Positions 5,745-37,128 of a stretch of DNA of 64,000 nt are shown piece after piece. The stretch is from the NCBI GenBank assembly GCA_943367715.1, contig CALRJY020000029.1:41-64040 (forward strand). The letters are read 5' to 3'. This stretch comes from Chitinophaga pinensis. GTDB lineage: Bacteria; Verrucomicrobiota; Verrucomicrobiia; Limisphaerales; JAEYXS01. The notes beneath the pieces were generated by a model. It was not told the DNA's origin. It worked only from the letters and a program-made list of their open reading frames with translations, and searched no databases. A program made the translations under genes and the position numbers. Within the stretch, counting starts at the first letter, position 1, and each line of letters begins with the position of its first letter.

Positions 5745-5807
5745 TCGTTAGCACTGTTGGGTATTGCACAGCGAGAAATTAAAGTGGCCCGGACACCGGA
5801 TTGTTCC

Positions 5808-6053
5808 ATGATTCAGGTAAGAAAGACATCTCCAAAGGAACTTAAAACACTTGGCGACCATTTGCGGAAAAGGCGGATGGAAACCAGCCTAACCCAAAGC
5901 CAAATCGCCGCCAAACTGGACATTCCACGCCTTCGCAAACAGGAGTTTGAGCGGGATGAAAGAACCCCATCGCAGGCCGACTGGAAGAAGTTATCGGCAG
6001 CGTTTGGGTTGTTAGCCCCTCAAGAACTGACCACACCCATCGGCGGAGTTTAA
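5808..6053 (+). CDS. small XRE-family helix-turn-helix protein (paralog 1)
   Basis: 81 aa from ATG 5808. LGDHLRKRRMETSLTQSQIAAKLDIPRLRKQEFERDERTPSQADWKKLSAAFGL fits the XRE/Cro HTH pattern. A paralog lies at 19723..19944. Confidence 0.55.
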   Translation: MIQVRKTSPKELKTLGDHLRKRRMETSLTQSQIAAKLDIPRLRKQEFERDERTPSQADWKKLSAAFGLLAPQELTTPIGGV

Positions 6054-6092
6054 TGTTGGGCATTACACGCCGTCACAATCGTCATAAGGGCC

Positions 6093-6310: not shown

Positions 6311-6479
6311 AAACTTGTATCTGCCTGCCTGACAAAAAGAACTAATCCCAAACTGGGGCCTTTTGGGAATCAGACTTAAGTTGTCCGCCACAGAGCTATC
6401 TCAACAGTAGCCTTGCTGACATAGCTCGTTTGTCTCGTTGCCTTTTCAGAAGTGCCCTGTAGTCTCGGACGATTGCGCG

Positions 6480-7229
6480 ATGCAGAGTGACACCGACACT
6501 GCTGGGGATGTAGCCAGGTCGCCACGTACCTTTTGCACTACCATGTGGCTGGTCGTACAGGAGGCCGGCCAGGTGGATTCTCAACGGTCTGCGGAGGCTC
6601 TGGCGCAACTTTGCCATGCCTACTGGTATCCGCTTTATGCCTTCGTACGGCGGCAGGGATATTCCCCCGAACAATCGCAGGATCTTACGCAGGAATTCTT
6701 TCGCCGCCTGATCGAAAAGAAAAGCTTCCAGGCCGCCGACCCCGCTCGCGGACGTTTCCGCTCCTTTCTGCTTTCTTCCCTCCGGAACTTTCTCGCCAAC
6801 GAATGGGAGCGAGCTCGCACCCAGAAACGTGGTGGCAATGCCATCAGCTTTTCCCTCGATGCCGTGAATGCCGAGGAGCAATACCAGCTCGAGCCATCCG
6901 ACGGGCGCACCCCGGAAACCATCTACGACCAGCGTTGGGCCTATGCCTTGTTAGAACGCGTCATGACGCAGCTACGGGAAGAGTTCACCGAATCAGGCAA
7001 AGCCGACCGCTTTGAAGCGTTCAGCACCTTCTTGTTGGACGATAATTCCGCCTCGCAGGCGGAGCTGGCTGTAGCCTTGAGGATGACGGAAAGCGCAGTG
7101 AAGTCGGCGATCCACCGTCTGCGCCAGCGGTATGGTGAACTGTTACGGCAGGAAGTGGCCCACACCGTAAGCCGCCCGGAGGACGTGGAGCGTGAAATTG
7201 TTGAACTATTTGAAAGTTTGGGTCGTTGA
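6480..7229 (+). CDS. ECF-type RNA polymerase sigma-70 family factor (kinase-associated type)
   Basis: ORF 6438..7229; likely ATG at 6480. Region 2 reads YWYPLYAFVRRQGYSPEQSQDLTQEFF. Region 4 HTH reads SQAELAVALRMTESAVKSAIHRLRQRYGE. About 50% identical by eye to the 34146..34994 product. The kinase gene follows after 41 nt. Confidence 0.85.
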   Translation: MQSDTDTAGDVARSPRTFCTTMWLVVQEAGQVDSQRSAEALAQLCHAYWYPLYAFVRRQGYSPEQSQDLTQEFFRRLIEKKSFQAADPARGRFRSFLLSSLRNFLANEWERARTQKRGGNAISFSLDAVNAEEQYQLEPSDGRTPETIYDQRWAYALLERVMTQLREEFTESGKADRFEAFSTFLLDDNSASQAELAVALRMTESAVKSAIHRLRQRYGELLRQEVAHTVSRPEDVEREIVELFESLGR

Positions 7230-7270
7230 TCGCGAAACCTTGGAAGCTTTTTCCGGTATAGCCTGTTGAA

Positions 7271-10200
7271 ATGGCAGTTTCTGCACCCAGTTTGAGATGC
7301 CGTAAATGCGGTGTCGCGCTGTCGTCATCTGGCACTACCGGCTTTTGCGCCCGTTGCCTGCTGGGTGGGGTCATGACTCCAAAACCGGGAACCCCTCCGC
7401 TTACCACCGTCATTCTGCCGAAGGTTCAGGATATTCGCCACCCCAGCCCGCCCATCACTGGCCGGCTCGGCGACTACGAAATCGTCGGGGAGGTCGCTCG
7501 CGGGGGAATGGGCGTGGTTTATAAAGCCCTAGACACCCGGACCGGAAGAACCGTCGCCCTGAAGATGATCCTCGCGGAAAGTCTCGGCGACATCTCCTTG
7601 AAGCGGTTCCAGAGTGAGGCCAGTGCTGCCGCCGCACTGGATCACCCGAACATCGTGCCGATATACGAAGTCGGCGAGACCGGCGGCCAGCCGTTCTTCA
7701 CGATGAAGCTGATTGAAGGCGGGAATCTGTCGTCCCGCCTCACCTCGTTTCATAAACACTTGCGTAAAGGTGTGGCCTTGCTGGCCAAGGTGGCGCGTGC
7801 CGTTCATCACGCTCACCAACGAGGCGTCCTGCACCGTGATCTGAAACCCAGCAACATCCTCGTAAACAATGAGGATGAACCCTTCGTCACCGATTTCGGC
7901 CTGGCGCGCCGGTTCGATGAGCAGAGTAACCTGACCCTGACCGGAACCCTCATTGGCACGCCTAATTTTATTGCTCCCGAGCTGCTGGGAAATCGACGGC
8001 AATCACTCACCACCGCTTCCGATATTTTCAGTCTCGGGGGGATTCTCTACAATGTCCTCACCGGACAGCCGCCCTTTCATTCTGAAAGTCTTTTTGAACT
8101 CCTCCATGGCGTCCAGCATACCGAGCCGCAACGCCCCTCCCTCCTCAATCAGCAGGTGGATGCCGACCTTGAGACGATCTGTTTGAAATGTCTCGAGAAA
8201 GATCCGCGCAACCGTTACCGCTCCGCTTTGGAACTGGCGGAAGATCTGGAGCGCTGGCTGGGGCATGAAACCATCGTGGCCCGTCGCGCCACTCCCGCTG
8301 AACGGGCCGTGAAGTGGGCCCGCCGCCGTCCCTTGGTGGCGGCTTTATCGGCGGCCATCATCTTGGCGGTCATCGGCGGCATTGTCGGAATCACCTTTCA
8401 GTGGCAGGAAGCCGAACACGCCCGAAAAATTGCCGAAGATAATCGCCAGGCGGAAAAACTGGCAAAGGAAGATGCCGAACGACAGCGCGCCAAGGCTGAG
8501 GAAGCCTTGAGCGATACCGCCGCCATGCTGACCGACAGTGAACTGGAAAAAGCAGATGCATTGCTGGCCGCCGGAGATTCCGGCGGCGGCTTGTCCTATC
8601 TGGCCCGCGTTCTCCGTCGCCAACCGGGCAACCTGGTGGCCTCAGGTCGTATCATGTCTTTCCTGCGTCAACGCAGCGTGGCTCTGCCGGAGATCTTAAG
8701 CTCTGCCAATCAATCTATGGTGCTTGATGCCGCCTTAAGCCAAGACGGCAACTGCCTCGTCACCGCTATCGATAAACCGGGCAACAATATCCAGATCACC
8801 CATTTCGATGCTTCAGCTCGCCTCCGAACCGCAACCCATGCTTTCGATACATTAGCCACCACCGCTGGCAAAGGCTCCGGACCATTCTTTGGCAAAGGAG
8901 TCGTCAGAACCAAGGCCCAGGCCAACACTCCCGAAGGAGACGGATTTCGGCTGGGCAACCCAACGGCTGCACGCCCCCGGCTGCCCATCATCGCAGGCTT
9001 TTTTTCCATTTCCTTCAGTCCCGATGATAAGCGCATCGTGTCCGCCGCCAATTCAGGCACCGTGCAGGTGTGGGATGCCTTCACCGGCGCAGCCGTCACG
9101 CCGGTATTGCAAACGGGTTCTCCCGTCGTCAGTGCGGCGCTTACGACAGGGGGCCGGTCGGTAGCGGCCGTGAGCCGCATGGGCAGAATGCAGGTATGGA
9201 ATCTCGCCACGGGTGAAGTCACCCAGGACGTGAAACTCCTCTCCTTGATTATTTCCGCCACGTTCAGCCCGGACGCTTCGCACGTCCTCCTCATCCGGGT
9301 GCCTGGGATTGCGCAGATATGGGATGTCCGTACCGGCAAGGTGGTCACGACACTTGAACACGAAGGCCTGGCTAATCACACGGCTTGGAGCAGTGATGGC
9401 CAAGTCGTTGCTCTCGCTGCGGAATCGGAGGTGAATGTGTGGCGTCTTGATCAGGGAAGTGGCAGTGCCTCGCGCATGAAACATCCACTGCCGGTCGCCA
9501 CACTGGTCTTGAATGCAGATGGTAGCAAGCTCGTCACCGGGTCCGATGATCAGTTTGCCCGGGTCTGGGATACCCGGACCGGCGAGCAATTGGTCCCGCC
9601 GCTGGAACACGCGGATGCCGTCCGTTTCATCACGTTCTCGGCTGACGGCAGGAAAATCGCCACCATCTCCCAAGGCAACGCCATCCGTGTCTTTGACACC
9701 CTCACGGGCCGGCCCGTTTGCGAGCCGATGCAACTTCGCAGCCCGGGTGTCTTCGCCCAGTTCACCCCGGGCGGTCGGGCCTTGATCGTGCTGTGCAGTG
9801 ATAGCACGATTTCACGCCACACCTTTGTCAGCCCGCCACCACCCATCGTTGCTCTGACTGATGCAGGGCGAGTTCGCTCGGCCAGCTTCAGCCCGGATGG
9901 GCGGATGCTCCTCACGGCTTCAGCCAATGGTCGCGCTCAACTTTGGGACGTGACTTCGGGTCGGAGCATACGGACTTTGGATCACGACTCTCCCCTTGTC
10001 AGTGCTGCTATGAATGCCGACGGATCACAGATCGTCACTGCGGGAACGGATCAAATGGTCCGGCTGTGGGAAACCCGTTCCGGCCGGCTGCTGGGACAGT
10101 CATTGCACGAATCCAACCGTATTTTCTCTGTCCGCTTCCGCTCTGACGAGCAGGTGGCCATCTCGACCGTCAGTGGCTTGGGCACTGTGTGGAAGCCCCG

Positions 10201-11026
10201 CACCGGCGAGCAACTCAGTCCTTTTCCCAACTACCCGGTGTGGCGTGAATCCATGATCCACTCATCGACGAACCGGGTGCTCGGCATTCTGGTGGCCGAA
10301 CGGGCCGCCGCCATCTACGACTATGTCACGGGTTCCATGACCGGGCCGCTGCTGAAACATTCGGACGTGATTACCAGTTGCAATTTCAGCCCCGACGGCC
10401 GCTACGCCATCACCACCTCCAGTGATAACACCGCCAACCTCTGGGACACGGCGACGTCACTGCCCCTCACGGGTCCGTTGCGGCACGATGGCGCGGTGTA
10501 CTTCGGAGCGTTTGCTCCGGATAACCAGCAGGCCGTCACCGCCTCCAAGGATAAAACGGCCCGGCTTTGGCGCATCGCTCCTGGTGTCTCCCTCACTCGC
10601 ACACTCCTTCATGAGGCCGGCGTACGTTATGCTGAATTTAGCCAGGACGGAGCGCGATTGCTGACCGTAGCCAGCGACTTCACCGTGCATCTCTGGGATG
10701 TGCGTCTGGGCCGGCGTCTGGCCGACCCGCTGCAGTTCAAGACCGCCGTGGTTTCCGCCCATTTCTCGCCTGACGGCCAGACCATTTTCGCCGCCAGCGA
10801 AGATGGTGACGCACGTCTTTGGTCAGTCCCCGCTCTTCCGCTCCCTGCCCCGGCGTGGCTGGCCGATGTGGCCGAGCAAATCGGCGGCTCGCGGATTGAT
10901 CCCAAAGGCCTGAACCAGCCAGCCCTTCGGCAGAACTTGTCCGAGTTGATCAACATCGCCCCCGGCACAGATCCCTACGCGCGGGAGATCAGGCGCTTGC
11001 TCCTTTCCGCTCCTGCCGCCAAATAA
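7271..11026 (+). CDS. membrane Ser/Thr protein kinase with N-terminal CxxC...CxxC motif and large C-terminal WD40/PD40 beta-propeller region
   Basis: 1251 aa. CRKCGVAL-X11-CARCLL; Hanks kinase motifs GGMGVVYKA, HRDLKPSNIL, DFGLAR, GTPNFIAPE. Single TM (LVAALSAAIILAVIGGIVGITF). Coiled-coil segment, then many FSPDG...WD-type repeats. Confidence 0.9.
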   Translation: MAVSAPSLRCRKCGVALSSSGTTGFCARCLLGGVMTPKPGTPPLTTVILPKVQDIRHPSPPITGRLGDYEIVGEVARGGMGVVYKALDTRTGRTVALKMILAESLGDISLKRFQSEASAAAALDHPNIVPIYEVGETGGQPFFTMKLIEGGNLSSRLTSFHKHLRKGVALLAKVARAVHHAHQRGVLHRDLKPSNILVNNEDEPFVTDFGLARRFDEQSNLTLTGTLIGTPNFIAPELLGNRRQSLTTASDIFSLGGILYNVLTGQPPFHSESLFELLHGVQHTEPQRPSLLNQQVDADLETICLKCLEKDPRNRYRSALELAEDLERWLGHETIVARRATPAERAVKWARRRPLVAALSAAIILAVIGGIVGITFQWQEAEHARKIAEDNRQAEKLAKEDAERQRAKAEEALSDTAAMLTDSELEKADALLAAGDSGGGLSYLARVLRRQPGNLVASGRIMSFLRQRSVALPEILSSANQSMVLDAALSQDGNCLVTAIDKPGNNIQITHFDASARLRTATHAFDTLATTAGKGSGPFFGKGVVRTKAQANTPEGDGFRLGNPTAARPRLPIIAGFFSISFSPDDKRIVSAANSGTVQVWDAFTGAAVTPVLQTGSPVVSAALTTGGRSVAAVSRMGRMQVWNLATGEVTQDVKLLSLIISATFSPDASHVLLIRVPGIAQIWDVRTGKVVTTLEHEGLANHTAWSSDGQVVALAAESEVNVWRLDQGSGSASRMKHPLPVATLVLNADGSKLVTGSDDQFARVWDTRTGEQLVPPLEHADAVRFITFSADGRKIATISQGNAIRVFDTLTGRPVCEPMQLRSPGVFAQFTPGGRALIVLCSDSTISRHTFVSPPPPIVALTDAGRVRSASFSPDGRMLLTASANGRAQLWDVTSGRSIRTLDHDSPLVSAAMNADGSQIVTAGTDQMVRLWETRSGRLLGQSLHESNRIFSVRFRSDEQVAISTVSGLGTVWKPRTGEQLSPFPNYPVWRESMIHSSTNRVLGILVAERAAAIYDYVTGSMTGPLLKHSDVITSCNFSPDGRYAITTSSDNTANLWDTATSLPLTGPLRHDGAVYFGAFAPDNQQAVTASKDKTARLWRIAPGVSLTRTLLHEAGVRYAEFSQDGARLLTVASDFTVHLWDVRLGRRLADPLQFKTAVVSAHFSPDGQTIFAASEDGDARLWSVPALPLPAPAWLADVAEQIGGSRIDPKGLNQPALRQNLSELINIAPGTDPYAREIRRLLLSAPAAK

Positions 11027-11162
11027 CTCAGTCCCCTAAGGCCGCTTCCGTCCTGTTCACCCTCTCGATTTCGGCTTTCTGAAAAATATTTATTTCGCCG
11101 CGAAACCTTTCGGGAATTTTCCGTTAGTAGCCGGTGAAGCCCCACCATGTCGGTGCGGCTGG

Positions 11163-14100
11163 ATGACACATATCATGCAAAACCGGCCTCTGGCATTTGT
11201 ACGCTTACTGCTCGTATTGGCGTTTGCTTTTTTCACGAGCATGGGCTTCGCCCAGACTCCTGTCACCGCCTTCACTTATCAGGGGCGCCTCACTGATAAT
11301 GGCCTGCCTGCCAACGGCACGTATGAATTCCGTTTCACCCTCTATAATGCCCTCACGGTTGGTGCCCAGATCGGCAATGTGGTTACTGCCGCGCCCGTCA
11401 CGGTGACCGATGGCGTCTTTACCCTGCCGCTTGATTTTGGGGCGAGCGCCTTTGATGGCCAGGGCCGCTGGCTGGAGATCGGCGTACGCACCAATGGCGC
11501 TACCGGCTCACACTCAGTGCTGAATCCGCGTCAGGCCATCACCGCTGCCCCCTTCGCACTCTATGCCCTGAACGGAACGCCTGGTCCCACTGGACCTCAG
11601 GGACCTCAAGGTTTGCCAGGCATCCAAGGATTTGTCGGCCCGCAGGGACCTACTGGGTTGCAAGGTCTGGCGGGGCCGACGGGGAACCCCGGCGAGCAGG
11701 GTCCGGCTGGCTCTGTTGGTCCGCAAGGACCGCAGGGCCAGACCGGCGCCACGGGGTCTCAAGGTATTCAAGGCGTGCAAGGGCTCACGGGGCTTCAAGG
11801 ACCCAAAGGTCTCCGTTGGCTAGGCGCTTGGGATCTGGCCACAGTCTATCTCATGGATGATGCCATTCTCTATCAAGGCTCCGCGTGGTTTGCCAAACGC
11901 ATCAACCTCAATGTCCTGCCCGTCGAAGGTGATGACTGGACGCTGCTGGCCAGCAAAGGCACCGATGGCCCGGCTGGTCCCACAGGAGAAGCGGGTCCCC
12001 AAGGTGTCATGGGACCGCAAGGTCCGGCCGGTCAGCAAGGCATTCAAGGTATCCAAGGCATCACCGGAACCACGGGTTCCCAAGGACCGGCCGGCCTCAA
12101 AGGCGTGAACTGGCTCGGCCCTTGGAATTCCGCCACCGCTTACACCACCGATGCCGCCGTCTTCTTCAATGGCTCCGCCTGGATCGCCAAACGCGCCAAC
12201 CTCAATGTCTCTCCCGCCGAAAGTGCGGACTGGACCCTGCTCGCGCAGAAGGGCGATACCGGATTGCAAGGCATTCAGGGCCTTCAAGGTATCCAAGGGT
12301 TGATCGGCCCACAGGGCCCCATCGGACCGATGGGCAATCCCGGCGCGACGGGCTCCACCGGACCCCAAGGCCCCGCTGGCCCGCAAGGCATACGCGGCCT
12401 GCTCTTCCGTGGTGCGTGGGCTTCGGTCACGACTTACGCCGCATACGATGTCACCACCTACAACGGCTCCGCCTGGATCGCCCTGCAAGGTAATCAGAAC
12501 ATCGCTCCCGTCGAAGGCGTGAACTGGACGACCCTCGCCCAGAAAGGCGAACCCGGCGAAGGCTCCAGCAGCATAGGTCCTACGGGCCCGCAAGGTCCGG
12601 CGGGGATGACCTTCCGCAGCGCGTGGAACAGTGCCACCGCTTATGTGGCCAATGACGCCGTGTCCTACAACGGTTCCGCTTGGCTCGCCAAACGACCCAA
12701 CATCGCCATCATCCCCTTGGAAGGCAACGACTGGACCCTCCTCTCTGCGAAAGGCGATGCCGGTACTCAAGGCCCGCAAGGTCTCGCCGGTGCTGCGGGT
12801 GCGCAAGGCCCCATGGGCTTGCAAGGTGTTCAAGGTCCGGCAGGTCCACAGGGATTGCCCGGCACCACCACGGCGGATGGTCTCACCAGCGGCACCTTGG
12901 CAGATGTCCGGCTCAGCGCGAATGTGCCGCTGATGAATGGCGTGAATATTTTCTCTGCCGCCAACCGCTTCAGCGGCGCCGTGGAGATCACCAATGCCAA
13001 TAACATCCTGAACGGCACCTTCACCGGCAACGGCGCGGGCCTGACCAATCTGCCTGGCCAATGGACCGTTGTGGCTGGCACCCAGCAGACCGCCGTTCCC
13101 AACCGCTCGTATGTGCTGACCAACTCGGCCCTGTCCACGGTGAACCTGCCCACCTCGGCGAAGGTGGGCGATACTGTTACTCTTTCCGGCACGGGCGCAA
13201 ACGGATGGCGGGCTGTCACTATCTCGTCCAGCCCGGGAGAAGTATGGGTGCCCCGAGACAGCGATCGCCCTTGGTACTCCATCGCCTCCTCTGCGGATGG
13301 TTCCAAACTTGTGGCCGCAGCCTTTTTTGATCAGATTTACGTCTCCACCGATTCCGGCGTGACTTGGCAGGCCAAAGATACCGCCAGACAGTGGGAATCG
13401 GTTGCCTCCTCCGCCGATGGCACCAAGCTCGTCGCCGTAGTCCTTGACGGTTTTATTTACACTTCCGCCGATTCCGGCGAGTCTTGGCAGCCCAAAAGCA
13501 GTTTCCGTGGTTGGAGATCAGTCGCCTCCTCTGCGGACGGCACCAAACTCGTCGCCGTAGTCCAGGACGGTCAGATTTACACTTCCACCGATTCCGGCGA
13601 GTCTTGGCAGCCCAAAGACAGCATCCGAGGTTGGCGCTCAGTCGCCTCCTCCGCCGATGGCTCCAAACTCGTGGCCGGTGTTTATGGCGGTCAGATTTAT
13701 ATCTCCACCGATTCCGGCGTGACTTGGCAGGCCAAAGACAGCCCGCGAAACTGGATATCAATCGCCTCCTCTGCGGATGGCACCAAACTCGTCGCCGTGG
13801 TCAATGGCGGTCAGATTTATATCTCCAGCGATTCCGGCGTGACTTGGCAGGCCAAAGACAGCCCGCGAAACTGGTGGTCAGTCGCCTCCTCCGCCGATGG
13901 CTCCAAACTCGTCGCCGTGGTCAATGGCGGTCAAATCTATATCTCCACGGATTTCGGCGAGACTTGGCAGCCCAGAGACAGCACACGGTCTTGGCGGTCA
14001 GCCGCCTCTTCCGCCGATGGCTCCAAACTTGTCGCCGGGGAAATTTATGGCCGGATTTACACATCGATTCCGGAGACCGTGATTTCGACCGGCGGGCCCG

Positions 14101-17100
14101 GAAATTCCAGCACCTTGCAGTATCAGGGCGGTGGCCTCTGGCAACCGCTGAAAGAAGCTCAACTTGCCGGGGATGGCTTTCAACTGACCCGCTTGAACGC
14201 CACGAATCTCGTCGGTCAGATTCCAACCGCCTCGCTTTCCGGCACCTATACTGGTGCCGTCACGTTCAGCAATTCCGCCAATTCGTTCACTGGCAACGGA
14301 GCCGGACTGACGAACTTGAACGCAACGAACCTTGCCAGCGGCACCGTCAATGACGCCCGCTTGTCCACCAATATCGCCCGCCTCAATGCCACAAATATTT
14401 TCACCGGCACCAACCGTTTCAGCGGCGCCGTGATCCTTACCAACGCGGCTAACACGATTGCCGGTAACGGCTTCGCTCTGACCAGTCTCAACGCCACCAA
14501 CCTCACCGGCACCATCCATGACTTGCGCCTTTCCCCCAATGTGGCGTTGCGCGATGCGGCTAATGTCTTGAGTGGAGCCAACCGTTTCAGCGGCACCGTG
14601 ATTCTCACCAACGCGGCTAACACCATTGCGGGTAACGGCTTCGCCCTGACCAGTCTCAATACCACCAACCTCACGGGCACCATCCATGACCTGCGCCTGT
14701 CCGCCAATGTGGCCTTGCGGAATGCGAACAATGTTTTCACCGGTGCCAACCAGATCAACGGCACCTTCACCGGTAACGGTGCCGGGCTGACCAATCTGCC
14801 AGGTCAGTGGACTGTCGTAGCCGGAACCCAACAGACCGCCGAACCCAATCGTTCTTATCTGTTGACCAATGCCACATCCACTACCGTCATTTTGCCGGCC
14901 TCCGCCCAAGTTGGCGATGTCGTTACCGTGGCTGGCAGCGGGTTGGGTGGCTGGACCGTTCAGGCAAATACCACCCGTAGTCCTTGGGTTGAGCAGTCCA
15001 ATTATCGGAACTGGCAGAGCGTGGCCGCTTCCGCCGATGGCTCGAAATTGGTTGCCGGTGCCCAAGATGGTCTCTTCATCTCAGTTGATGGTGGCCACAC
15101 GTGGGCCGGAAAAAATCCCGGAGGTGCTGGTGGCGCTATCAAGAGCGTCGCCATTTCTGCGGATGGGAATATCTTGCTCGTCGCAGACTCCAGTCAAATC
15201 CATTCGTCTCGCGATGGTGGGGCGACGTGGTTGACACCGGAAGGAGGGGCTACCTGGAAATCTGTGGCCATGTCATCCGATGGCAGCAAGATGATAGCCC
15301 TGGCGGGCAACGGCACTTGGTTTTCCACGGATTCTGGAGTGACTTGGGAACTCAGTCGCAGCAATGCACCAGCGGGCGAGGATGTGGCCATGTCGAGCGA
15401 TGGCAGCCACATCGCCGTGGCGACCGGAGGAAACTACGTTATTACCTCGGTGGATTTTGGTTATACCTGGACCGCTCGCTTGGTGAATGCGGAGTCTCTT
15501 GCCATCGCTTCCTCTGCTGACGGAACCAAACTGGTGACAGCAGGTTCCAGTGGCATTTTTATCTCCACCAATGCCGGGGCGACTTGGACACAGAGGTTAA
15601 ATTTAAGCGTTGCTTGGAAAAGTGTCGCCTCCTCAGCCAACGGCACCAAACTGGTAGCCGTACATAACGGAGGCAAGATTTATACATCCAACGATTCCGG
15701 ACTTACTTGGATCGCCGAGGAAACGGTTCGTCTCTGGTCCGACTGCGCTATGAGCGCCGATGGCAACCGTCTGTTTGCGGTGGTGGCTGATACTGGCGGG
15801 GCCATCTGCATTTCAGCGATCGATGGCGCCTCCTTCAGCGGTGCGGCGGGCGGCTCCATCCGGCTGCAGAACGTCGGGGCTGGGCTTTGGCAGGCTGTGG
15901 GAGAAACGCAAGTGGCTCCAGGCTCCGTGGGGAATGCGCAGATCACCAGTCTGGATGCCGCCAAGCTCACGGGCATTGTCCCGGACTCACGGCTTACGGC
16001 CAATGTGGCGCTGCGCAATGCCGATAATATCTTCAGCAGTTCAAACCGGTTCAGCGGAGCAGTAACGATCACCAATGCCGATAACCTCGTCAACGGCACC
16101 TTCACCGGCAACGGTGCGGGCCTGACTGGTTTGAACGCTGCCAATCTTACGACTGGAATCCTTGCCGATGCCCGCTTGTCCGCCAATGTCTCCCGGCTCG
16201 ACGGCACGAACGTCTTCACCGGCACCAACCGTTTTAGCGGGGCAGTAACGATCACCAATGCCAATAATCTCGTCAACGGCACCTTCACCGGCAACGGAGC
16301 GGGCCTGACTGGTATGAACGCTGCCAATCTTACGACCGGAAGCCTGGCCGATGCCCGCTTGTCCGCCAATGTCTCCCGGCTCGATGGCACGAACGTCTTC
16401 ACAGGCACCAATCGTTTCAGCGGGGCAGTGACGATCACCAATGCCAATAACATCGTCAACGGCACCTTCACTGGCGATGGCGCGGGCCTCACCAACCTTC
16501 CGGGCCAACAATGGCTCACCGTGGCTGGCACCGCGCAAACAGCCCAGCCCAACCGTTCCTATGTGCTGACCAACTCAGCCCTGTCCACCGTGACCTTGCC
16601 CACCTCGGCCAACGTTGGCGATACCGTCAGTGTTTTCGGCACTGGCACGGGTGGCTGGCGGGCGTTGGCATCAGGCAGCACTAGCTGGACAACCCGGGAG
16701 AGCAGCCGTAATTGGCAGGCACTTGCTTCTTCTGCTGATGGCAACAAACTTGTCGCGGGAGTTTCAAACGGCCAAATCTATACCTCAACGGATGCCGGTG
16801 TGACCTGGACGCCCAGAGACAGCGACCGCGATTGGCGCACCGTCGCTTCTTCCGCCGATGGCTCCAAGCTTGTCGCCGCGGTCAATGGCGGCCTGATTTA
16901 TACTTCCACCGATTCCGGTGCGACTTGGACTCCCAGAGAGAGCAACAAGAATTGGTGGTCGGTCGCCTCATCCGCTGACGGCACCAAACTCGCGGCCGCC
17001 GTGCAAGGTGGCCAGATTTACACCTCAATCGATTCGGGGATCACTTGGACACCTAGAGAGAGCAATAGAACTTGGAATTCGGTCGCCTCGTCCGCCGATG

Positions 17101-19127
17101 GTTCCAAGCTTGTCGCCGCTGTCAATGGCGGCCTGATCTATACTTCTACCGATTCGGGCACGACGTGGACCCCGAGTGGAAACAATGGATCTTGGCGTTC
17201 CGTCGCCTCCTCCACCGATGGGTCCAAACTCGTCGCTGCCGGTCCCGGCCTGATTTATACTTCGACCGATTCTGGGGTGACTTGGACGGCTCGTGACAGC
17301 AGCAGAAATTGGTGGGCGGTCACTTCCTCAGCCGATGGTGCCAAACTCGCCGCGGTAGTCCTTACCGGTCAGATCTACATTTCGACTGATTCCGGCGGGA
17401 CTTGGACACCGGTCGAAAGCACCCGCGAGTGGCGGGCAGTGGCCTCATCTGCGGACGGCTCCAAGCTGGCAGCCGCAGTCTTTGCCGGTCAGATTTACAC
17501 CTTATCAGGCTCCTTTGTCTGGACTGGTGGCCCGGGGACTTCCACGACGCTCCAATATCTGGGTAACGGAACTTGGCTGCCGTTGAAAGAATCCCAACTT
17601 GCCGGGGATGGTTCCCAATTGACCGGTTTGCCCGCCGCAAACCTCACTGGCACCGTTCCATCCGCTTCCTTGGGCGGCACCTATTCCAGTGCGGTCACGT
17701 TCAGCAGTTCCGGCAATTCATTCACTGGTAATGGCGCAGGATTGACCAGCCTGAACGCCACCAACCTCACCGGCTCGGTTCAGAGCGCAAATCTGGCCGG
17801 CACGTATGCTGGCACGGTGACCTTCAACAATGCCGCGAACAGCTTCACCGGCAGCAGTTTTTCGGGAGGCACTTTCTCTGGCACCACCTTTACCGGCACC
17901 GCTTTTACCGGCACCACCTTCACCGGCAACGGCGCCCTCCCGTGGTCGGTCGTTTCCGCCACATCGGTCACCGCATCTTCTGGTCGTGGTTACGTGCTCG
18001 CCAATGATACGATGAGCACCATCACCTTGCCGGCTTCACCCAATGTAGGCGAGATCGTCCGCATCACCGGCACCGGCACCAACGGTTACCTCATCGCCCA
18101 AAACGCTGGACAATCCATCCGCACGCGTTTCTTACCCACCTATGTGGTCGGCAACACCTGGACCGCGCGCGATTCCAGCCGCCTTTGGTCAGGCGTGGCT
18201 TCCTCTACTGATGGCACCAAACTGGTAGCCGTCGTGAACAATGGCCAGATCTACACCTCATCCAACTCCGGCTCCACCTGGACTGCTCGCGATTCAGTCC
18301 GTTTGTGGTCCGGCGTCGCTTCCTCCGCCTCCGGCACCAAACTGGTCGCGATCGTTACTGGTGGTCAGATCTACACCTCGTCCAATTCCGGTTCCACCTG
18401 GACCGCCCGTGACAGCGCCCGCGAATGGTTCGCCGTGGCCTCCTCTGCGGATGGCACCAAGCTGGTCGCCGCCGTGCGCAACGGCCTGATCTACACCTCC
18501 ACGGATTCCGGGGCCACTTGGACCGTCCGGAACGGCTCTGGCTCGCGCGACTGGCGTTGCATCGCCTCCTCTGCCGACGGCACCAAACTGGTGGCGGGCG
18601 TCAACAGCGGCCAGCTCTACACCTCCACGGACTCCGGGGTTACATGGACCGCCCGGGCGACCGCACTATCATGGCGTTCGATCGCCTCCTCGGAAGATGG
18701 TACCAAGCTCCTTGCGAGCGCCGGCAACCAGGTCTATCGCTCCGCCGATTCCGGGGTCACATGGACGCTGCATACCAGCGTCCAAGGTGATATCGTCACC
18801 ACCTCAGCTGATGGGTCCAAGCTCGTAGCCTACAGCAACAACGGCCAAGGTTATTTCTCCAGCAATTCCGGCGGCACCTGGATCAACCGCTCCGGTCCCG
18901 ATTTGGATTACCTCGTTTCCTCGGCGGACGGCTTGAAACTGTTGGGCGCGAAGGTTAGTGGCACCCTCCAGACGTCCACCTTGGAAAGCGTCACCTCACC
19001 CACCAGCACCACTACCGGCACCGGCGGTTACCTCATCGGCGACGCTGAATCCACCGTGGAACTCCAATACATTGGCAGCGGAAAATTCCTGCCGCTGAGC
19101 TTCCAAGGCGTCTTCTTCGTGAACTGA
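11163..19127 (+). CDS. giant secreted fibre-like protein: N-terminal beta domain, collagen-like Gly-X-Y tracts alternating with CBM5/12-like modules, tail-fibre-like repeats and four BNR/Asp-box beta-propellers
   Basis: 2654-aa ORF. Signal peptide ([23 protein letters not shown]). The [22 protein letters not shown]...RWLEIGVR domain is followed by 5 Gly-X-Y tracts and 4 'W..AT.Y...D.V.YNGSAW.AK....I.P......WTLL' modules. Repeats of the [26 protein letters not shown] type follow. About 28 'IYTS.DSG.TW..R.S...[13 protein letters not shown]' blades carry the SxDxGxTW Asp-box. Confidence 0.85.
11574..12866 (+). repeat. collagen-like (Gly-X-Y)n tracts interleaved with four CBM5/12-like modules (coding)
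   Basis: aa 138-568 of the giant ORF. The first tract has about 26 uninterrupted GXY triplets ([19 protein letters not shown]...GLQGPKG). Confidence 0.8.
13245..14057 (+). repeat. BNR/Asp-box propeller 1, 120-bp (40-aa) in-frame tandem repeats, about 7 copies
   Basis: Successive 120-bp units (e.g. 13681-13800 vs 13801-13920) are about 90% or more identical at DNA level by eye. Analogous propeller blocks lie at about 14985-15812, 16680-17507 and 18150-18962. Confidence 0.8.
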
Positions 19128-19136
19128 GATAACGTC

Positions 19137-19613
19137 ATGAAAATCACTCTGTTTAAACAGCACGGTCTCATTTCCTGGCTTGGGGTCATCCTGTTCCTGC
19201 TCTTGGCATCAGCCGCCCAAGCTCAGTCTTATGCCATCGATAATCCCACCATCAGCAATGGCGGCGGCACCAGCAGCAACAGCCAATACACCCTGAGCGG
19301 CACCATCGGCCAACCTGCGAGCGACTCCGCGAACAGCAGCGGATACGGCCTCGCCACCGGTTTCTGGAGCGCCGTCATCCCGCTGAACACGCCCGATGCC
19401 CCTTTGCTCACCATCACTAGAATCGGCGGCAACATCATGCTCTCCTGGTCCGCATCCGCTGGAGTTTTCAAACTCGAAGAGACCACCGACCTAAACGCAC
19501 CAATCATCTGGACATTATCCAAAGCCACCATCGTGACCGAAAACGAAGTCAGCACCGCCACCCTGCCAAACAACGGTGGCCTGCGTTTCTTCCGCCTGTC
19601 CCAGACCAAGTAA
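19137..19613 (+). CDS. small secreted protein co-transcribed with the giant gene
   Basis: 158 aa, starting 9 nt after the giant ORF stop. Signal peptide (WLGVILFLLLASAAQAQS). GGGTSSNSQYTLSGTIGQP...GYGLATGFWS motif. C-terminal beta domain ends GGLRFFRLSQ. No family name recalled. Confidence 0.6.
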   Translation: MKITLFKQHGLISWLGVILFLLLASAAQAQSYAIDNPTISNGGGTSSNSQYTLSGTIGQPASDSANSSGYGLATGFWSAVIPLNTPDAPLLTITRIGGNIMLSWSASAGVFKLEETTDLNAPIIWTLSKATIVTENEVSTATLPNNGGLRFFRLSQTK

Positions 19614-19640
19614 GACCATTAAAGGACAATTAAATTCATC

Positions 19641-19668
19641 GCAAGATTCTGACACAGAACGTTTAGCA
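19641..19668. repeat. cassette-tail motif, copy 1 (gcaagattctgacacagaacgtttagca)
   Basis: 25/28 identical to 35287..35314. Contains the small palindrome ttctg-N3-cagaa. Abuts the head repeat copy B. Confidence 0.6.
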
Positions 19669-28000: not shown

Positions 28001-30517
28001 GCTGACCACCGTGGACAGATCACCATTCACCAGACCGCTATAACCAGCCGAGAACGTCGGATTGGCCGCACCATAGGTCTTGCTGGTGTTAACCGGGGTG
28101 ATCGTCAACGGAGCCTGATCTATCGTCAGTGTGCTGCTCACTAAAGCGATCCCATACCCCATGTCGGTGAGTGACAGTGTGCCATTCGCCGTGGAGATCG
28201 GCGCTGTGCCGGAACTGGTTCCAGCAGTAGCCGAAGTGGAAAGCGCGGGCGTGCCAGTAATGGCCGCACCCAAGGTGTCGCCGCTCAGCAAGCCACTCAC
28301 TGAATAGGTCAACGCCGGGTTGGCAGCGCCATAAGTCTTGGACTTGCTCTCCGCTGTGAAGGTGAGCACCGGAGCCAAGCTGTAAAGGAAACGATCCCCC
28401 GTCGCACTGATGGTCGCAGGTGCATTCGCATCGTAGGTCTTATTGTAAGTCGTCGCTCCCGTCAGACCGCCCTTGATCGTATTCACCGGAGCATCGCTGT
28501 AAATAAGGTAACGTCCGCTACCGCTCGCCTCCACGGCGGTAGCACCAGAGTTGTTGACGAAACTACCGCCCCGCGCGGCCAGCACAAGGTCACTGGCACC
28601 CGTGTTCTTGACCAATGCCCCAGAACCCAGAGTGAGATTACCGCCCGTGACAATTTCCACCGCACCCGCCACGCCGCTGAAATCACCGTTCACCATCAAG
28701 CCACCCGCGCTATCATACACTTTGAGATTGCCCCCGATTGTGCCCTCATTGCCGATCGTCTCCAGTGCACCGATGGTGTTGTTCACATTGTTGATCAACA
28801 CATCCGCAGCAAAGCCACCGAACTCGCGCGACAGGAAAACGGAACCGGCATTCACCGTGCCAGCAAGGTTTACGGTGCCGACGTTCAGATTGTCCGGCGC
28901 AGCAATCATGCTTTTACCCAACGTCAACGAGCCGACACTGATCGACTTGTTCGCCGCCAGCGAAATGGTGCCCACGGAACTATTCGCCAGGCTGGGCACG
29001 CCGGCATATAGATTCAGGCTGCTGCCCGTGCCACCGCTGATGTTCGCGTTGATGGCGATGGTGTCGCCGGAAGCCAAGGTGAGGCCGGAAGCAGTCGTCC
29101 AGTTCACATCAGCGTTGACGCTGATGCCGTTGTAGCCCGCAGGCCCGCTGGTGTAGATTTCAACATCGGTAAAACCGAGTGTTGAATTCAAAGTGGAAAC
29201 ATTCAGGTAAGACGGGATGGCTCCTGCTTGGAAGTAGCCGCCTTGGTTGAAGATATCCTGACCGGCATCGGTCGTGATGATAATCGAGTCAGGGTCCAGA
29301 AGCAGTCTGCCCTTTTTGCCAAATGGAGCGGAGGTGTCGGCGGTGCCAGAAAAATCAAGCACCCGTTTGCCTGAAACTTCCAGCAAACCGCCGTCCCCGC
29401 CTTCACTCCCACCCTTGGCTAAAATAGTACCTTTGAATTGCGTTGCCCCATCCGCCCAGACAATCGCTTTGCCGCCATTCCCCATCGTAGCATTGGCACT
29501 GACATCGAGCTTCGCCGATTCAGTCACGATGGTAGTGGCCGCGTTCGCCACGGCACTGTTCTTTCCTTGGTAGTCACCGCCGACAAGGATCTCGCCACCG
29601 CTGCCATTGGCGTTATGCGCGCTGATCTCCCCGGAAACTTTCACCTTGCCGCCATCGGCCGTAAGCAACACCCGGCCATTCTTTTCCTCCACGCCGGTGG
29701 CGCGGATGATACCGGATTGGTTCACCGCCAGTTCATAGATGCTGCCGCCTGCAGCTTTCAATTCCGCTTGCGCCGCTTTCATCAGCCCGGAGTTCTCCAC
29801 CCCTTGCTCCAACCCATCCGCCTGCAGACCACTTTTAACCAAAATGCGCTGATCCCCTTGATGGGTGAGCAACACTTCGGAACCGGCAGCCAATCCCGCC
29901 ACGCCTTTGGGCGCATTGATCTCGCCCGCGTTCTTCACTGTGTAGGCGATAAGCATGACGTCGCCATTTTGCGCGTTGATGGTGCCGAGGTTGTGGATGC
30001 CTGCTTTGGAATCACCTGAAAAAAGCAGATTGCCCTGCTTGAGAAAATCATTGTCCGAGATATTCAACGTGGAAGCAAAGAAAGCTCCGACATCGATGCG
30101 ACCTTGTGGGCCGACCACGATGCCATTCGGGTTGATCAGGTAGACTTGGCCATTGGCTTGAAGCTGGCCTAGGATCAAGGACGGATTGCCTCCGAGGACG
30201 CGATTAAGCGTAGCGCTATCGACGCCTGGCTGGATGAAGCGCGTGATGTCACCCGCCTTGATGTCAAACCCCTGCCAGTTGATCACCGCTGCGCCAGTTT
30301 GCTGCTCGATGGTGCGAACGTTGCCGTTCTGTTGGAAAGTCGCCGCACCGACCACTACCTGCGGTGCACCTACGATATCGGCCGCTTGCATCATGCTGGG
30401 CGCCAGCACGAGAAAAACAGCCAGCCAAGTCATCGCCTGCAAAGGCAAGGAAAGCGGGCGAAAACGATAACGACTCTTCTCTTGCTGTGCTGGCGTTGCT
30501 GAACACATTGAGCTCAT
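22073..30517 (-). CDS. giant two-partner-secretion exoprotein (TpsA / filamentous-haemagglutinin-like) with about 20 MBG repeats and a hydrophobic Gly/Ala-rich C-terminus
   Basis: 2814 aa. TPS domain motifs: INWQGFDI, LNRVLGGNPSLILGQL, YLINPNGIVVG. Beta-helix region carries GGDGGLLEVSGK...GRLLLDPD. A long array follows of '..K.YG.ANP.F.A.Y.GLVNGD..SVVSGL...T.A...SGVG.Y.I...GASA.NY.ISY..GTLTI' (MBG/YG-type) repeats. Confidence 0.9.
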   Translation of the reverse strand: MSSMCSATPAQQEKSRYRFRPLSLPLQAMTWLAVFLVLAPSMMQAADIVGAPQVVVGAATFQQNGNVRTIEQQTGAAVINWQGFDIKAGDITRFIQPGVDSATLNRVLGGNPSLILGQLQANGQVYLINPNGIVVGPQGRIDVGAFFASTLNISDNDFLKQGNLLFSGDSKAGIHNLGTINAQNGDVMLIAYTVKNAGEINAPKGVAGLAAGSEVLLTHQGDQRILVKSGLQADGLEQGVENSGLMKAAQAELKAAGGSIYELAVNQSGIIRATGVEEKNGRVLLTADGGKVKVSGEISAHNANGSGGEILVGGDYQGKNSAVANAATTIVTESAKLDVSANATMGNGGKAIVWADGATQFKGTILAKGGSEGGDGGLLEVSGKRVLDFSGTADTSAPFGKKGRLLLDPDSIIITTDAGQDIFNQGGYFQAGAIPSYLNVSTLNSTLGFTDVEIYTSGPAGYNGISVNADVNWTTASGLTLASGDTIAINANISGGTGSSLNLYAGVPSLANSSVGTISLAANKSISVGSLTLGKSMIAAPDNLNVGTVNLAGTVNAGSVFLSREFGGFAADVLINNVNNTIGALETIGNEGTIGGNLKVYDSAGGLMVNGDFSGVAGAVEIVTGGNLTLGSGALVKNTGASDLVLAARGGSFVNNSGATAVEASGSGRYLIYSDAPVNTIKGGLTGATTYNKTYDANAPATISATGDRFLYSLAPVLTFTAESKSKTYGAANPALTYSVSGLLSGDTLGAAITGTPALSTSATAGTSSGTAPISTANGTLSLTDMGYGIALVSSTLTIDQAPLTITPVNTSKTYGAANPTFSAGYSGLVNGDLSTVVSGLLMGTPATASSGVGTYAITGSGASAANYSISYLPGTLTINQAPLTITANNNNKIYGSANPTFSASFGGLVNGDLSTVVSGLALGTTATASSGAGTYPITGSGASAANYSISYSPGVLTIDRALLTITANDASRAFGAANPTFSALYGGLVNGDNSSVVSGLSLATTADAASPVGNYSIIAAGASAANYSISYVPGTLSVANAILTITADNFSRIYGSANPTFTAGYAGFINGDTVSIVSGLQFNTSATINSGIGTYSITPFGASAPNYGINYVAGSLSISPADLVIRANNASRIYGAVDPTFTANYSGLVAGDTAANISGLTLTPAATVTSGVGDYAITASGAANPNYNISYAPGTLTIDKAPLTIAADNKSKTYGAVNPALTATFTGLKNGENDSVVSGLSLATTAATGSGAGNYAITASGASAANYSISYGAGTLTIGKAPLIITANDASRTYGAVNPSFSASYNGLVNSDLSSVVSGLLLGTTATSSTGVGGYPITASGASAVNYNISYAPGTLTINQAPLTITANSLNKTYGSANPTLTASYSGLMNGESSGVVSGLSLGTTATSSTGVGGYAITASGASAANYSISYAPGTLTIDKAPLAITADNQSKIYGSANPTLTASYSGLVNNDLSSVVSGLSIVTAATANSGVGDYGITVSGASAPNYSISYTAGTLSVNPATLTVRADNQTRFYGDANPTFGGTVSGFVLGENTSVLTSLPTYSTTAGLTTGVGGYAITPSGGSAANYNIVRQNGTLTINPAILAVNADNTVRTYGDANPTLTYTVSGLKNGDSADGKFFIFTHGSVAAPNSPVGNYNIIFNGNDTPNDNYSTFFANGTLTVQPRALTIRTDAISREYGLANPAFTATFTGLASFDTPSVIPTLGFNTLATTASGVGDYTVTPTSGNNANYVITRLPSLMSITPAPLTIAAGSLFRDYGDANPTFTPFIAGGSLRNGDTAVGVNLRIVTGATQSSPVGTYNLAGAITSPNYTIVNSVAGSLQILPAILNVTVGNGTRLYGDANPGVSVSATGLKLSDTAAAQVTLTHSATAQAPVGTYSISAVGNSANYQINSVTPGNLQIFPAPLNVTVGNTSRGYGDANPTTAPLTVTGFKFGEAGNTAVQIIHSATLQSSVGSYPITATGINPNYFLSAVTPGALQITPAQLNVRLFNADRIYGDANPTPAFETITGLKFGETFASVVSRGNSATLQSGVGSYPFTATSISPNYQVNSVEGSLRILPAPLNVTAANTTRFYGDPNPATALQSVVGLKFGETPASIVTLNSEASLQQLVGTYDILATSQSPNYQITLVSGTMRVNPRPITLIGNDASKIFGENNPSLSYSVGGSGVASFDNAATLLAGVGVSTTAELTSTVGGYPIAITGPTVPNPNYAVTLQPGTLTVNPRPISLDVQGFTRFYYDANPEVVTTIGGMGLASFDTLADVISWIDKTPALAADIGAYPLFPRILDSHNYDITLRGNLATIVPRNLTIYVDSIKVDEGATVPGFSAVVGNLPTGLTMADVLPNLTYGTVDDAASFRPEVRPVSALTDHPIANPFAAANLSAMEVDADGNILKAPNTAGGLSGLATKFLIFAKDPAPVPPVVLDPDTTFLIPVDFVTGGTLVSRKTITVSGYNENPNYAVTYVSGGRLEVIIPNAATLAAREMEAIAESKAHLEVTTTPPATPFKMPEAFKAPAMQPYLEQAAQTLMAQLISAGDTVTLDLYFKDGISSFLSGFNDDPTRQTMLMGRLSEVVIKYAKLPADQQPPELAFIIQEATIKAKQVKIDQAQEVVRLYDEWLAGPDPSIPQIVNPGDMNLVPNFAHQVKVSYAKDAAIVIGTSLGAGATVGALMCAVPVSAITSAVATGGALSGASLGFTASTTIGAAITATTTSGAGAVSGIGMAVVAPALVAALAVATITIAAVQLAKQPEIKASIAAAQSLAVAAPAGVSLDLNDVDDQAAFTSGFLSFMSGGAL
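23528..28375 (-). repeat. MBG-type repeat array (about 80 aa / 240 bp period, about 20 copies, coding)
   Basis: aa ~715-2330 of TpsA. Neighbouring central copies (e.g. aa 1281-1360 vs 1361-1440) are highly similar; distal copies are more diverged. Confidence 0.8.
29618..30382 (-). other. TPS (haemagglutination-activity) secretion domain of TpsA
   Basis: aa ~46-300 of the TpsA ORF. NPNG(I) and N-x-V-x-G-x-x-x-S motifs are present. Confidence 0.8.
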
Positions 30518-30680
30518 ATTTTAACGGCGCGCATAGTGTGGTCCTAACGACAGACAGCAAGCGCTATCCCTTCCTGAACCATTTAAGGGGGAGAGTTTCG
30601 CAAGAAATGAAGAATCATCCTTATTCGGATGAGGTAAGCTCGCCGGACGGCTAACCCTTTTTTGCCACCAGTCTATCCGC

Positions 30681-33600: not shown

Positions 33601-34022
33601 ATCAGGCGCATGGAGAAAAAATGCCAGCCGTCGTGATGGCCCACTTCCAGGATGGGAACGATGTTCGGATGGGCCAGCTTGGCGGCTGATTCGGCCTCGG
33701 TGCGGAACCGCTCAACCATCCGGGGCGACGCCAGCTCTCCAGCGGCGATTACCTTGAGCGCCACCATACGGTTCAGTTTTACCTGCCGCGCGCGGAAGAC
33801 GACCCCCATGCCGCCACGCGCAATTTCCCCGAGCAATTCGTAGCCTGCGAACGTACGACGCTGCAACAATTGCTCTGGCGCCTGCAGTTCCACCAACTCC
33901 GCCTCGGAATCCGCCACGGCGTTGATCAGGAGACAGCGCACGCAGAGCGCGTCGGCGGTGGCGTCGGCAAGCGACGCCCCGCAACGCGGGCAAAGTCCTG
34001 ATTTAACGTGCGTGTCCGACAT
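30681..34022 (-). CDS. membrane Ser/Thr protein kinase with CxxC...CxxC motif and WD40/PD40 beta-propeller region (paralog of 7271..11026)
   Basis: ORF extends to 34130. Met at 34022 (MSDTHVKSGLCPRCG...) matches the N-terminus of the paralog. Kinase motifs: GGMGVVFRA, HRDLKPTNIL, DFGLAK, GTPAYMSPE. TM segment ALAVLVPLLLLIITAGSLWF, then many FSPDG-type repeats and a helical C-terminal tail. Confidence 0.85.
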   Translation of the reverse strand: MSDTHVKSGLCPRCGASLADATADALCVRCLLINAVADSEAELVELQAPEQLLQRRTFAGYELLGEIARGGMGVVFRARQVKLNRMVALKVIAAGELASPRMVERFRTEAESAAKLAHPNIVPILEVGHHDGWHFFSMRLIEGGTLAARMVEMRFKPEEAARLLVKVARAVHHAHLHGVLHRDLKPTNILLDAHGEPHLTDFGLAKMVEESRDLTHSAAVLGTPAYMSPEQALGQTRDVTVGADVYGLGAMLYEMLAGHLPFAATNTPALLRQIIEDEAPSFRRATALDIDLEIICLKCLEKDPEHRYSSAAALADDLENWLRGEPVLARASTSLERGVKWMRRHPAKAALAVLVPLLLLIITAGSLWFNVSLSQTRHALEASARETRRELVSQHLHEASLLTADHDCYAAMLPLVEALALEQQEAGAMPQSLERLSLTWQFAPHLLRMWDARGTPVTLSFAPDNSRLTAIMRTGGERVWQLDTGREISATESGPKQTTGPIAHVGRLVSADGRWVAVADGASTRVSDTHGGPQLFQVKPSSAFLDQDFSPDGKYFATAAFNDQAEVRTVPDGNRYRFSIRHHNGANRVLFSPDGRFLATAGFDYQVRVHYTRELRQALPTFQNGALVEALAFSADGRFLATGDAWGTVRVFDLFLRQNFVPTGATFARKTAISPDGKSAVLVSNGRQLQFWDIAAQRPVGEVLKSRGAAAQTIFDASGRRLAVACGKEGVQVWDIPTSRVVLDLPDLGTVAAVAFNPDGTKLLVALDNNTAQVWSIAERCASGPVMDRKTYSDGRPLSAQWTYGVKGSVSTWSPDGRWIVVAGGVNCATVWDAATGTPVGDPIFSDGEVRAVSFSPDNGRMVIAFNDRNIEPAYAQMYELPTLRALGPPLRHGDGVTGAMFSNKGDVLVTSGQDSVVRLWRVSDGSPAAPDFHHGGLLVTQNFQPGRNVLATSAADNAIRLWDTARGELMAPPLVLGYAPQSIQFTSDGETLLFGSARGATSFFHFRQAAWPANSWRQLAVCLNGVKLDDQGRRIMVSSAELAQTFAGLQAVQPQDFIWNSDPTDWHRHCSAVAEMQGEWFTAAFHLERLLALNRDDVPLLSRLATAKERLK

Positions 34023-34145
34023 AGTGGCAGAGCCATAGGATACCTGAACCGGATTCAGGGGCAAAGTTTCGCGAACCGTGCGGATTTCCCGTCTCCACTG
34101 GTGATTTCGGGAAAGGCGGTGCGGCCACAATATCCTTCGCTCGTT

Positions 34146-37102: not shown

Positions 37103-37128
37103 GCGGGGCGCGATATTCAATCACCAAA

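Follow-up and report, generated by a model that had tools for sequence, protein, structure and literature searches.

Extracytoplasmic function (ECF) sigma factors that have a Ser/Thr kinase gene as neighbour and no anti-sigma factor are known from several groups, namely ECF43, ECF59-ECF62, ECF217, ECF267 and ECF283 (PMC7826278; PMC8999054). Activation by phosphorylation has been reported for ECF43 members, which include EcfP/PknT of Vibrio parahaemolyticus, a pair from Hyphomonas and EcfK/PknS of Xanthomonas citri (PMC8999054; PMC13147305). ECF43 proteins have uncharged residues in place of the DAED motif (STTA in EcfP), with a threonine among them that is phosphorylated, whereas other groups are reported to retain a DAED-like sequence and possibly use another mechanism (PMC8999054; PMC8103513). 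Here we describe two paralogous pairs of this general kind, sigma1-kinase1 (module 1) and sigma2-kinase2 (module 2), in a 64,000 nucleotide (nt) stretch of contig CALRJY020000029.1 from a member of the Verrucomicrobiota, referred to below as the window. The pairs themselves are ordinary: cassettes of this kind are known and very abundant, and these two represent no new circuit or principle; the novelty implied by an earlier note made on this DNA from its letters does not stand, since kinase-linked ECF pairs without an anti-sigma factor had already been described and the sigma family concerned is extremely abundant. What is new is a bipartite motif that reads as an ECF-type promoter, GCGAAAC-N15/16-(CGTTAG or GTTCAGG), and its placement: in the window it precedes both kinase genes and both of two giant exoprotein genes, and neither sigma gene.

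Sigma1 (6480..7229, + strand; 249 aa) is an ECF (group 4) sigma-70 factor, encoded in an open reading frame (ORF) of 6438-7229 in which the ATG at 6480 is the probable start. Its domain matches are to sigma-2 and sigma-4 only, with Sigma70_r2 at 25.8 bits (cut-off 24) and Sigma70_ECF at 24.4 (cut-off 21.1), TIGR02937 falling just under its cut-off (41.9, cut-off 42.9). Residues 42-224 align through the family profile to SigE of M. tuberculosis, and a Foldseek search with the sigma1 model returned ECF sigma factors exclusively, as weak matches that are silent on the extensions. Kinase1 (7271..11026, + strand; 1251 aa) begins at an ATG 41 nt beyond the sigma1 gene, exactly as the earlier note had it. 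The protein has a zinc ribbon (Zn-ribbon) at residues 10-29, whose cysteine spacing is CxxC-X12-CxxC and not the X13 previously given, a kinase domain (69-317) with an intact Hanks core (RGGMG 77, VALK 95, HRDLKPSN 188, DFG 208 and APE 235), one transmembrane (TM) helix (356-374), a charged helix at about 377-420 and WD40 propellers at about 575-1190; the overall architecture of Hanks kinase, single TM helix and coiled coil with WD40 repeats that had been claimed for it is borne out by these motifs, the single hydrophobic segment and the WD40 matches. The TM segment is immediately preceded by KWARRRP, and five Lys or Arg residues in its N-side flank point to an N-in/C-out orientation. The C-terminal 875 or so residues (coiled coil and WD40) are thus predicted to be extracytoplasmic, because the kinase domain requires ATP and shares its side of the membrane with the positive charges, and the topology check supports the same placement of the repeats in the earlier note.

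Module 2 lies at 34907-30681, convergent with module 1. Sigma2 (34146..34907, - strand) probably starts at a GTG at 34907, its ORF extending up to 34994, and kinase2 (30681..34022, - strand; 1113 aa from the ATG at 34022) repeats the plan of Zn-ribbon, kinase, one TM helix and WD40/PD40 repeats. The two sigma factors are 48 % identical and the two kinase domains 44 % identical. Kinase2 has the Gly-rich loop, VALK, HRDLKP(S/T)N and DFG, with SPE where kinase1 has APE; the Pkinase matches of the window's two kinases have E-values of 4.6e-49 and 2.1e-48, and both are Hanks-type Ser/Thr kinases. The sigma2 and kinase2 ORFs (34146-34022, - strand) share a frame; a stop codon and 41 sense codons lie between them, the promoter-like motif is in this spacer, and the common frame is probably a coincidence of one chance in three. 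No anti-sigma-like ORF or domain adjoins sigma1 or sigma2, and Pfam and NCBIfam gave no anti-sigma match among the neighbouring ORFs, in agreement with what had been noted for both genes. The window sigmas therefore belong to the kinase-associated ECF class, having a kinase neighbour and no anti-sigma factor among the adjacent genes.

The family to which they belong has an N-terminal FxTTxW, xAQD at the DAED position of sigma-2.2, a KRGGG linker loop and a C-terminal TVxxPxEVExEI tail; sigma1 has FxTTxW, QSQD, a KRGG loop and a TVxxPxDVExEI helix, and sigma2 has QAQD at the same position. The tail after region 4.2, remarked on in the earlier note as common to the two paralogues, is real and family-wide, with T229, V230 and E239 invariant or nearly so. 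An AlphaFold model of sigma1 (predicted TM score, pTM, 0.76) shows the tail as a confident helix at 234-248 (per-residue confidence, pLDDT, ~87) and has residues 1-21 (including F18, T20 and T21) and the KRGGG loop disordered. At the DAED position Glu has become Gln in 88 of the 112 top matches with a readable motif, and is kept in only 2; DAQD or EAQD is found in 59 of 120 relatives, and the last Asp is always present.

Comparison with ECF43 shows what is shared and what is not. Like EcfP and EcfK, the window sigmas lack an anti-sigma factor and sit beside a membrane Hanks kinase; in both of those systems the kinase activates the sigma factor by direct phosphorylation, with EcfK controlling a type VI secretion system (PMC8999054; PMC13147305), and phosphorylation would be the corresponding step here. 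ECF43 has STTA with a phosphorylated threonine, whereas the window has xAQD with no conserved Ser/Thr, and the N-terminal FxTTxW, the KRGGG loop, the C-terminal helix and kinases with a Zn-ribbon and WD40 repeats are all additions that ECF43 lacks; the taxa also differ. ECF43, which the earlier note had cited as a known kinase-linked group, is accordingly a functional analogue, but membership of that group was rejected, since QSQD and QAQD do not carry its sigma-2.2 signature. A DAED-like acidic motif is said to mark the groups other than ECF43 (PMC7826278; PMC8999054), and xAQD fits that description. The genome-predicted groups ECF59-ECF62 and ECF217 resemble the window pairs, as compared by shared traits only, in having a kinase neighbour, no anti-sigma factor and hosts from lineages of the Planctomycetes-Verrucomicrobia-Chlamydiae type. 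Single-pass planctomycetal Ser/Thr kinases with periplasmic WD40 or TPR arrays have also been described (PMC11032199); those with WD40 repeats have, by predicted topology, a cytoplasmic Pkinase domain and a C-terminal WD40 region outside, as here, and the accessible part of that study links them neither to ECF sigma genes nor to target promoters. The statement that an arrangement such as this is not a characterised circuit holds to the extent that, according to a 2022 review, no kinase-linked ECF sigma factor outside ECF43 had been tested experimentally (PMC8999054), but the class itself had been described.

This family of sigma factors is a very large one, matched at E<=1e-5 by more than 6,600 of 8,000 scored candidates, and an exhaustive search gave 3,210 clusters at 50 % identity with E<=1e-30. 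Species-representative genomes that carry it are mostly Verrucomicrobiota, with Planctomycetota and Acidobacteriota well represented, and the closest species-representative matches to the window sigma, again mostly from Verrucomicrobiota, are only 53-54 % identical. Gene order was counted at 69 species-representative loci from these three phyla that have enough downstream sequence. A kinase gene directly follows the sigma gene in 49 (~71 %), nearly all of these kinases having the Zn-ribbon; WD40 repeats like those of the window are present in 13 of the 49, the others having different C-terminal regions. The kinase is at the +1 position in both window modules and in all orthologous loci fetched (related loci are designated here by L numbers), and in the orthologous loci the order helix-turn-helix (HTH) gene, sigma, WD40 kinase, giant gene is kept. 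Tandem sigma-kinase arrays occur in L027, L023, L056 and L025, with four pairs within 20 kb in L027 and the motif before each kinase gene. A cultured relative, Lacipirellula limnantheis I41, also has a cassette with this motif (L021).

Four copies of the promoter-like motif lie in the window. In module 1, P_k1 (GCGAAAC-N15-CGGTAT; 7232..7261, + strand) lies 39 nt before the kinase1 ATG and is conserved in L085, L087, L088 and L004, and P_g1 (GCGAAAC-N15-CGTTAG; 11100..11130, + strand) lies 63 nt before the ATG of the giant1 gene and is conserved in the same four loci and in L001. In module 2, P_k2 (GCGAAAC-N16-GTTCAGG; 34043..34072, - strand) lies 50 nt before the kinase2 ATG and is kept as CGAAACTT-N12-CGGTTCAGG in L089 and L090, and P_g2 (GCGAAAC-N15-GTTCAGG; 30573..30601, - strand) lies 84 nt before the giant2 ATG. 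The window has 17 copies of the heptamer GCGAAAC, of which four are on the coding strand within the short spacers that precede the two kinase genes and the two giant genes; for these spacers, 466 nt together, 0.06 occurrences are expected (Poisson P ~6e-7). The -10-like box is module-specific: module 1 has CGGTAT (P_k1) or CGTTAG (P_g1), whereas P_k2 and P_g2 of module 2 each have GTTCAGG. The module 1 sites are conserved where the sigma factors are 56-87 % identical (L085, L087, L088, L001 and L004) while the flanking spacer diverges. The plain pattern GAAAC-N14-17-CGTT is not enriched in the window (4 matches, 2.7 expected), so the information lies solely in where the extended motif is placed. 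One further match, GCGAAACCTT at 44104-44110 (+ strand), precedes a protoglobin gene (44122-44694) by 18 nt; it was rejected as a chance occurrence, as it has no matching -10 box and is too near the ATG. A scan of 5600-20400 for consensus sigma-70 promoters and terminators was uninformative, and a full-text literature search for TGTAACC with ECF gave nothing relevant as judged by title or abstract.

The same element is evident across the family. The sigma-to-kinase spacer contains cTGTAACCTTT-N8-TTTnCTTcAGTAA in 47 of 62 loci, mostly 36-70 nt before the kinase start. A position weight matrix (PWM) trained solely on these family spacers was used to scan both strands of the window and 1.2 Mb of related loci, with a score of >=12 as cut-off. 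The best match in the window is the one at 11100 before giant1, with a score of 17.9 compared with a maximum of 11.9 in 20 shuffles, and the top match on the minus strand is P_g2. In the 1.2 Mb there are 75 matches, 44 of them within the locus's own sigma-to-kinase spacer; of the 31 others, 29 are on the sigma strand (binomial P 5e-7), and several of the 31 belong to neighbouring pairs of tandem arrays. About 12 of these 31 precede non-kinase ORFs, at distances of 35 to 164 nt from the start, and only one is upstream of a sigma gene. At least seven of the 12 or so non-kinase ORFs encode a signal-peptide-like or prepilin-type N-terminus (L001, L026, L028, L039, L042, L044 and L050), three of these proteins having Pfam matches (Kelch, Ig and DUF1559), and the theme common to the predicted targets is a predicted exported protein. 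A search of the 250 nt upstream of 79 sigma genes for bipartite motifs and for 6-mers gave no signal stronger than that of the reverse-strand control.

An AAC-containing -35 box, a spacer of fixed length and free sequence, and a -10 box that depends on the paralogue together look like a cognate ECF promoter. We infer from this geometry, from the placement and from the co-variation with the paralogue that the adjacent sigma factor reads the motif, and it is on that step that one alternative turns, namely that the motif is the site of some other factor, or a translational or RNA element of the kinase leader. In the kinase spacers the motif does end only a few bases before a Shine-Dalgarno-like GGTG and the ATG, as such an element might; yet no consensus RNA structure or pairing was found for it, its distance from the start codon is far from constant before non-kinase genes, its -10 half changes with the sigma paralogue, the geometry is of the AAC-type -35 kind with a 15-16 nt spacer, and in 1.2 Mb it occurs almost exclusively beside the cassettes of this sigma family. 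We regard this alternative as very improbable.

The predicted targets in the window are both exoproteins. Giant1 (11163..19127, + strand; 2654 aa) has a signal peptide, collagen repeats and Sortilin/BNR repeats, and its orthologue is the gene after the kinase in L085 (61-70 % identity). Its N-terminus (11163-11500) consists of the signal peptide and a module, with no Pfam model, that is common to the predicted targets in L001 (14941-17145) and L042 (15366-17027). The earlier note had treated 11163..19613 as a single giant gene; there are in fact two ORFs, the second (19137..19613, + strand) encoding 158 aa with its own signal peptide and no Pfam match, and lying downstream in the same frame as giant1, three codons past the giant1 stop (19125-19127). 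Giant2 (22073..30517, - strand; 2814 aa) is of the TpsA type, with a two-partner secretion (TPS) domain (E=3.2e-30) and 19 MBG_2 repeats, and the adjoining gene (20313..22070, - strand) encodes its TpsB-type transporter, with POTRA_2, POTRA and ShlB/FhaC (ShlB) matches; the two are a TpsA/TpsB two-partner secretion pair. A giant surface protein is a trait of the window and its close relatives rather than of the family, because the target proteins vary widely in size and domains. That sigma1 is wired to the giant gene, as had been suggested, is plausible in that the same ECF-type motif stands before both the giant and the kinase genes, with use of the motif by the sigma factor as the predicted link.

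On balance we think it rather probable that these are two paralogous copies of a cassette widespread in Verrucomicrobiota, Planctomycetota and Acidobacteriota, in which the kinase gates the sigma factor and the sigma factor drives the kinase gene and exoprotein genes. The sigma gene would be transcribed from its own, different promoter, and the protein would be kept inactive, or little able to engage core RNA polymerase, as long as the kinase has not acted. The kinase would sense an envelope or extracellular cue through its extracytoplasmic sensor, which in the window is the WD40 propeller array, and would act on the sigma factor, most likely by phosphorylation. Active sigma would then use GCGAAAC-N15/16 with CGTTAG in module 1 and GTTCAGG in module 2, so that the promoter before the kinase gene would give feedback on the sensor, and that before the exoprotein genes would yield the collagen/BNR fibre-like giant (module 1) or the TpsA-TpsB pair (module 2). 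The kinase is the obvious gate because of its conserved +1 position, the lack of an adjacent anti-sigma factor and the ECF43 precedent. Phosphorylation as its action on the sigma factor is a best guess by analogy with that precedent, for which the candidate acceptors are T20/T21 in the disordered N-terminal segment, S66 or T70, which lie close to the weakened DAED, and T229, where the tail begins.

Several observations weigh against this picture. The ECF43 mechanism is not directly transferable, because xAQD is family-wide with no conserved Ser/Thr, none being found at the DAED position among the 120 relatives. Kinase-linked and unlinked sigma factors are alike in FxTTxW, the DAED position, the KRGG loop and the tail, and so offer no clue to a phosphosite; an adjacent kinase is absent from 20 of the 69 loci; and a transcript from P_k1, given how near this site lies to the ATG, would have almost no leader. 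That the motif is read by the adjacent sigma factor is, as set out above, itself a reading of sequence, and the kinase could be no more than an output of the regulon, and not feed into it.

This last point can be taken further, with the kinase as a target and not a regulator: the sigma factor would be set elsewhere, for example by an XRE-type HTH protein acting on the sigma gene or by way of the C-terminal helix, and the kinase would belong to a regulon with the exoproteins and signal to other substrates. A small XRE/HTH_3-type gene (5808..6053, + strand) does precede sigma1. L085 has an HTH_3 gene in the corresponding place (9637-9861) with 60 % identity to it, and the gene is present in L087 also (1330-1485), the other flanks of these loci being different; it may be part of module 1 and control the sigma gene. 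In addition a block, ACATAGCTCGTTTGTCTCGTTGCCTTTT (6419-6446, + strand), 35-60 nt before the sigma1 ATG, also occurs in L085 and L087; this block does not resemble the ECF-type motif and may serve as the promoter or leader of the sigma1 gene itself. The conserved HTH gene and this different block fit a sigma factor set elsewhere, as do the position of the ECF-type motif before the kinase gene and not the sigma gene, the confidently predicted C-terminal helix and the lack of a conserved Ser/Thr in place of DAED. The HTH gene is seen, however, in the sigma1 clade only among the orthologous loci fetched, regulators of ECF sigma factors are normally members of the regulon themselves, and a sigma-then-kinase order in some 71 % of loci in three phyla, with arrays of up to four pairs, is what would be expected of cognate partners that need pair-wise specificity. 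We thus consider a kinase that is only a target to be quite improbable.

Of 82 kinases encoded next to a sigma gene, 78 have the Zn-ribbon, but so do 12 of 17 kinases away from a sigma gene, and the ribbon was therefore rejected as a sigma-exclusive marker. We also note three unusual forms directly after a sigma homologue: in L073 (from 2075) and L079 (from 10796) the ribbon is fused straight to WD40 repeats with no kinase domain or TM helix, and in L007 (from 10763) it is joined to a degenerate kinase (258 aa). Such forms are genuine derivatives or else errors in the assembly of metagenome-assembled genomes (MAGs).

A gate of this shape invites comparison with RpoE/RseA and FecI/FecR, in which, as here, the gene immediately after the sigma gene belongs to the regulon and encodes a single-pass regulator whose N-terminus is cytoplasmic and whose sensor lies outside; the window differs from them in that a catalytically intact kinase replaces the anti-sigma domain and in that the sigma gene has no cognate promoter. 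The kinase might then be a membrane tether similar to an anti-sigma factor, with the Zn-ribbon, perhaps together with the kinase domain, sequestering the sigma factor until a signal at the WD40 region releases it; phosphorylation would be secondary or only autoregulatory, and the promoter of the kinase gene would provide homeostatic negative feedback. The topology, in which a cytoplasmic module at the N-terminus is followed by a single TM helix and a sensor outside, is that of membrane anti-sigma factors, the ribbon is nearly constant in sigma-adjacent kinases and persists beside the sigma gene where the kinase domain is degenerate or missing, and the promoter is on the regulator gene rather than the sigma gene. 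Nevertheless, the catalytic motifs of both window kinases are intact and kinase activity is therefore under selection, the ribbon is not specific to sigma-linked kinases, a 20-residue CxxC-X12-CxxC ribbon is unlike known anti-sigma domains and had no anti-sigma match in Pfam or NCBIfam, and the three cases without an intact kinase domain are all from MAGs and could result from misassembly. A kinase that works mainly as a tether accordingly seems unlikely to us.

A gating kinase could also work by a mechanism distinct from that of ECF43, a proposal that we make tentatively and hold to be rather unlikely. In it the Zn-ribbon would be a dedicated sigma docking or anti-sigma-like module, and control would be exerted through the disordered and invariant FxTTxW and/or the C-terminal TVxxPxEVExEI helix and not inside sigma-2.2, compensating for the family-wide loss of the DAED Glu to Gln, with the promoter before the sensor kinase and exoprotein genes. 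As the promoter would precede those genes and not the sigma gene, the output would, if this is true, re-tune the level of the sensor and not that of the sigma factor.

The gene next to sigma2 is a divergent gene for a Gfo/Idh/MocA oxidoreductase. This well-supported gene (35402-36463, + strand) is overlapped by a 509-aa ORF (35591-37120, - strand) that has no family match and is probably spurious.

Few signalling cassettes in Verrucomicrobiota, Planctomycetota and Acidobacteriota are as expanded as ECF sigma-Ser/Thr kinase pairs. Published promoter predictions for kinase-linked groups relied on auto-regulation of the sigma gene, whereas here the motif lies between the sigma and kinase genes, and a search upstream of the sigma gene would therefore find no target motif. 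The window provides a clean test case, with two paralogous cassettes that each have a candidate promoter pair and defined target genes. The unusual position of the motif, together with the paired modules and their module-specific -10 boxes, gives a testable prediction of the regulons, and such a motif would let the regulons of this sigma family be read from genome sequence.

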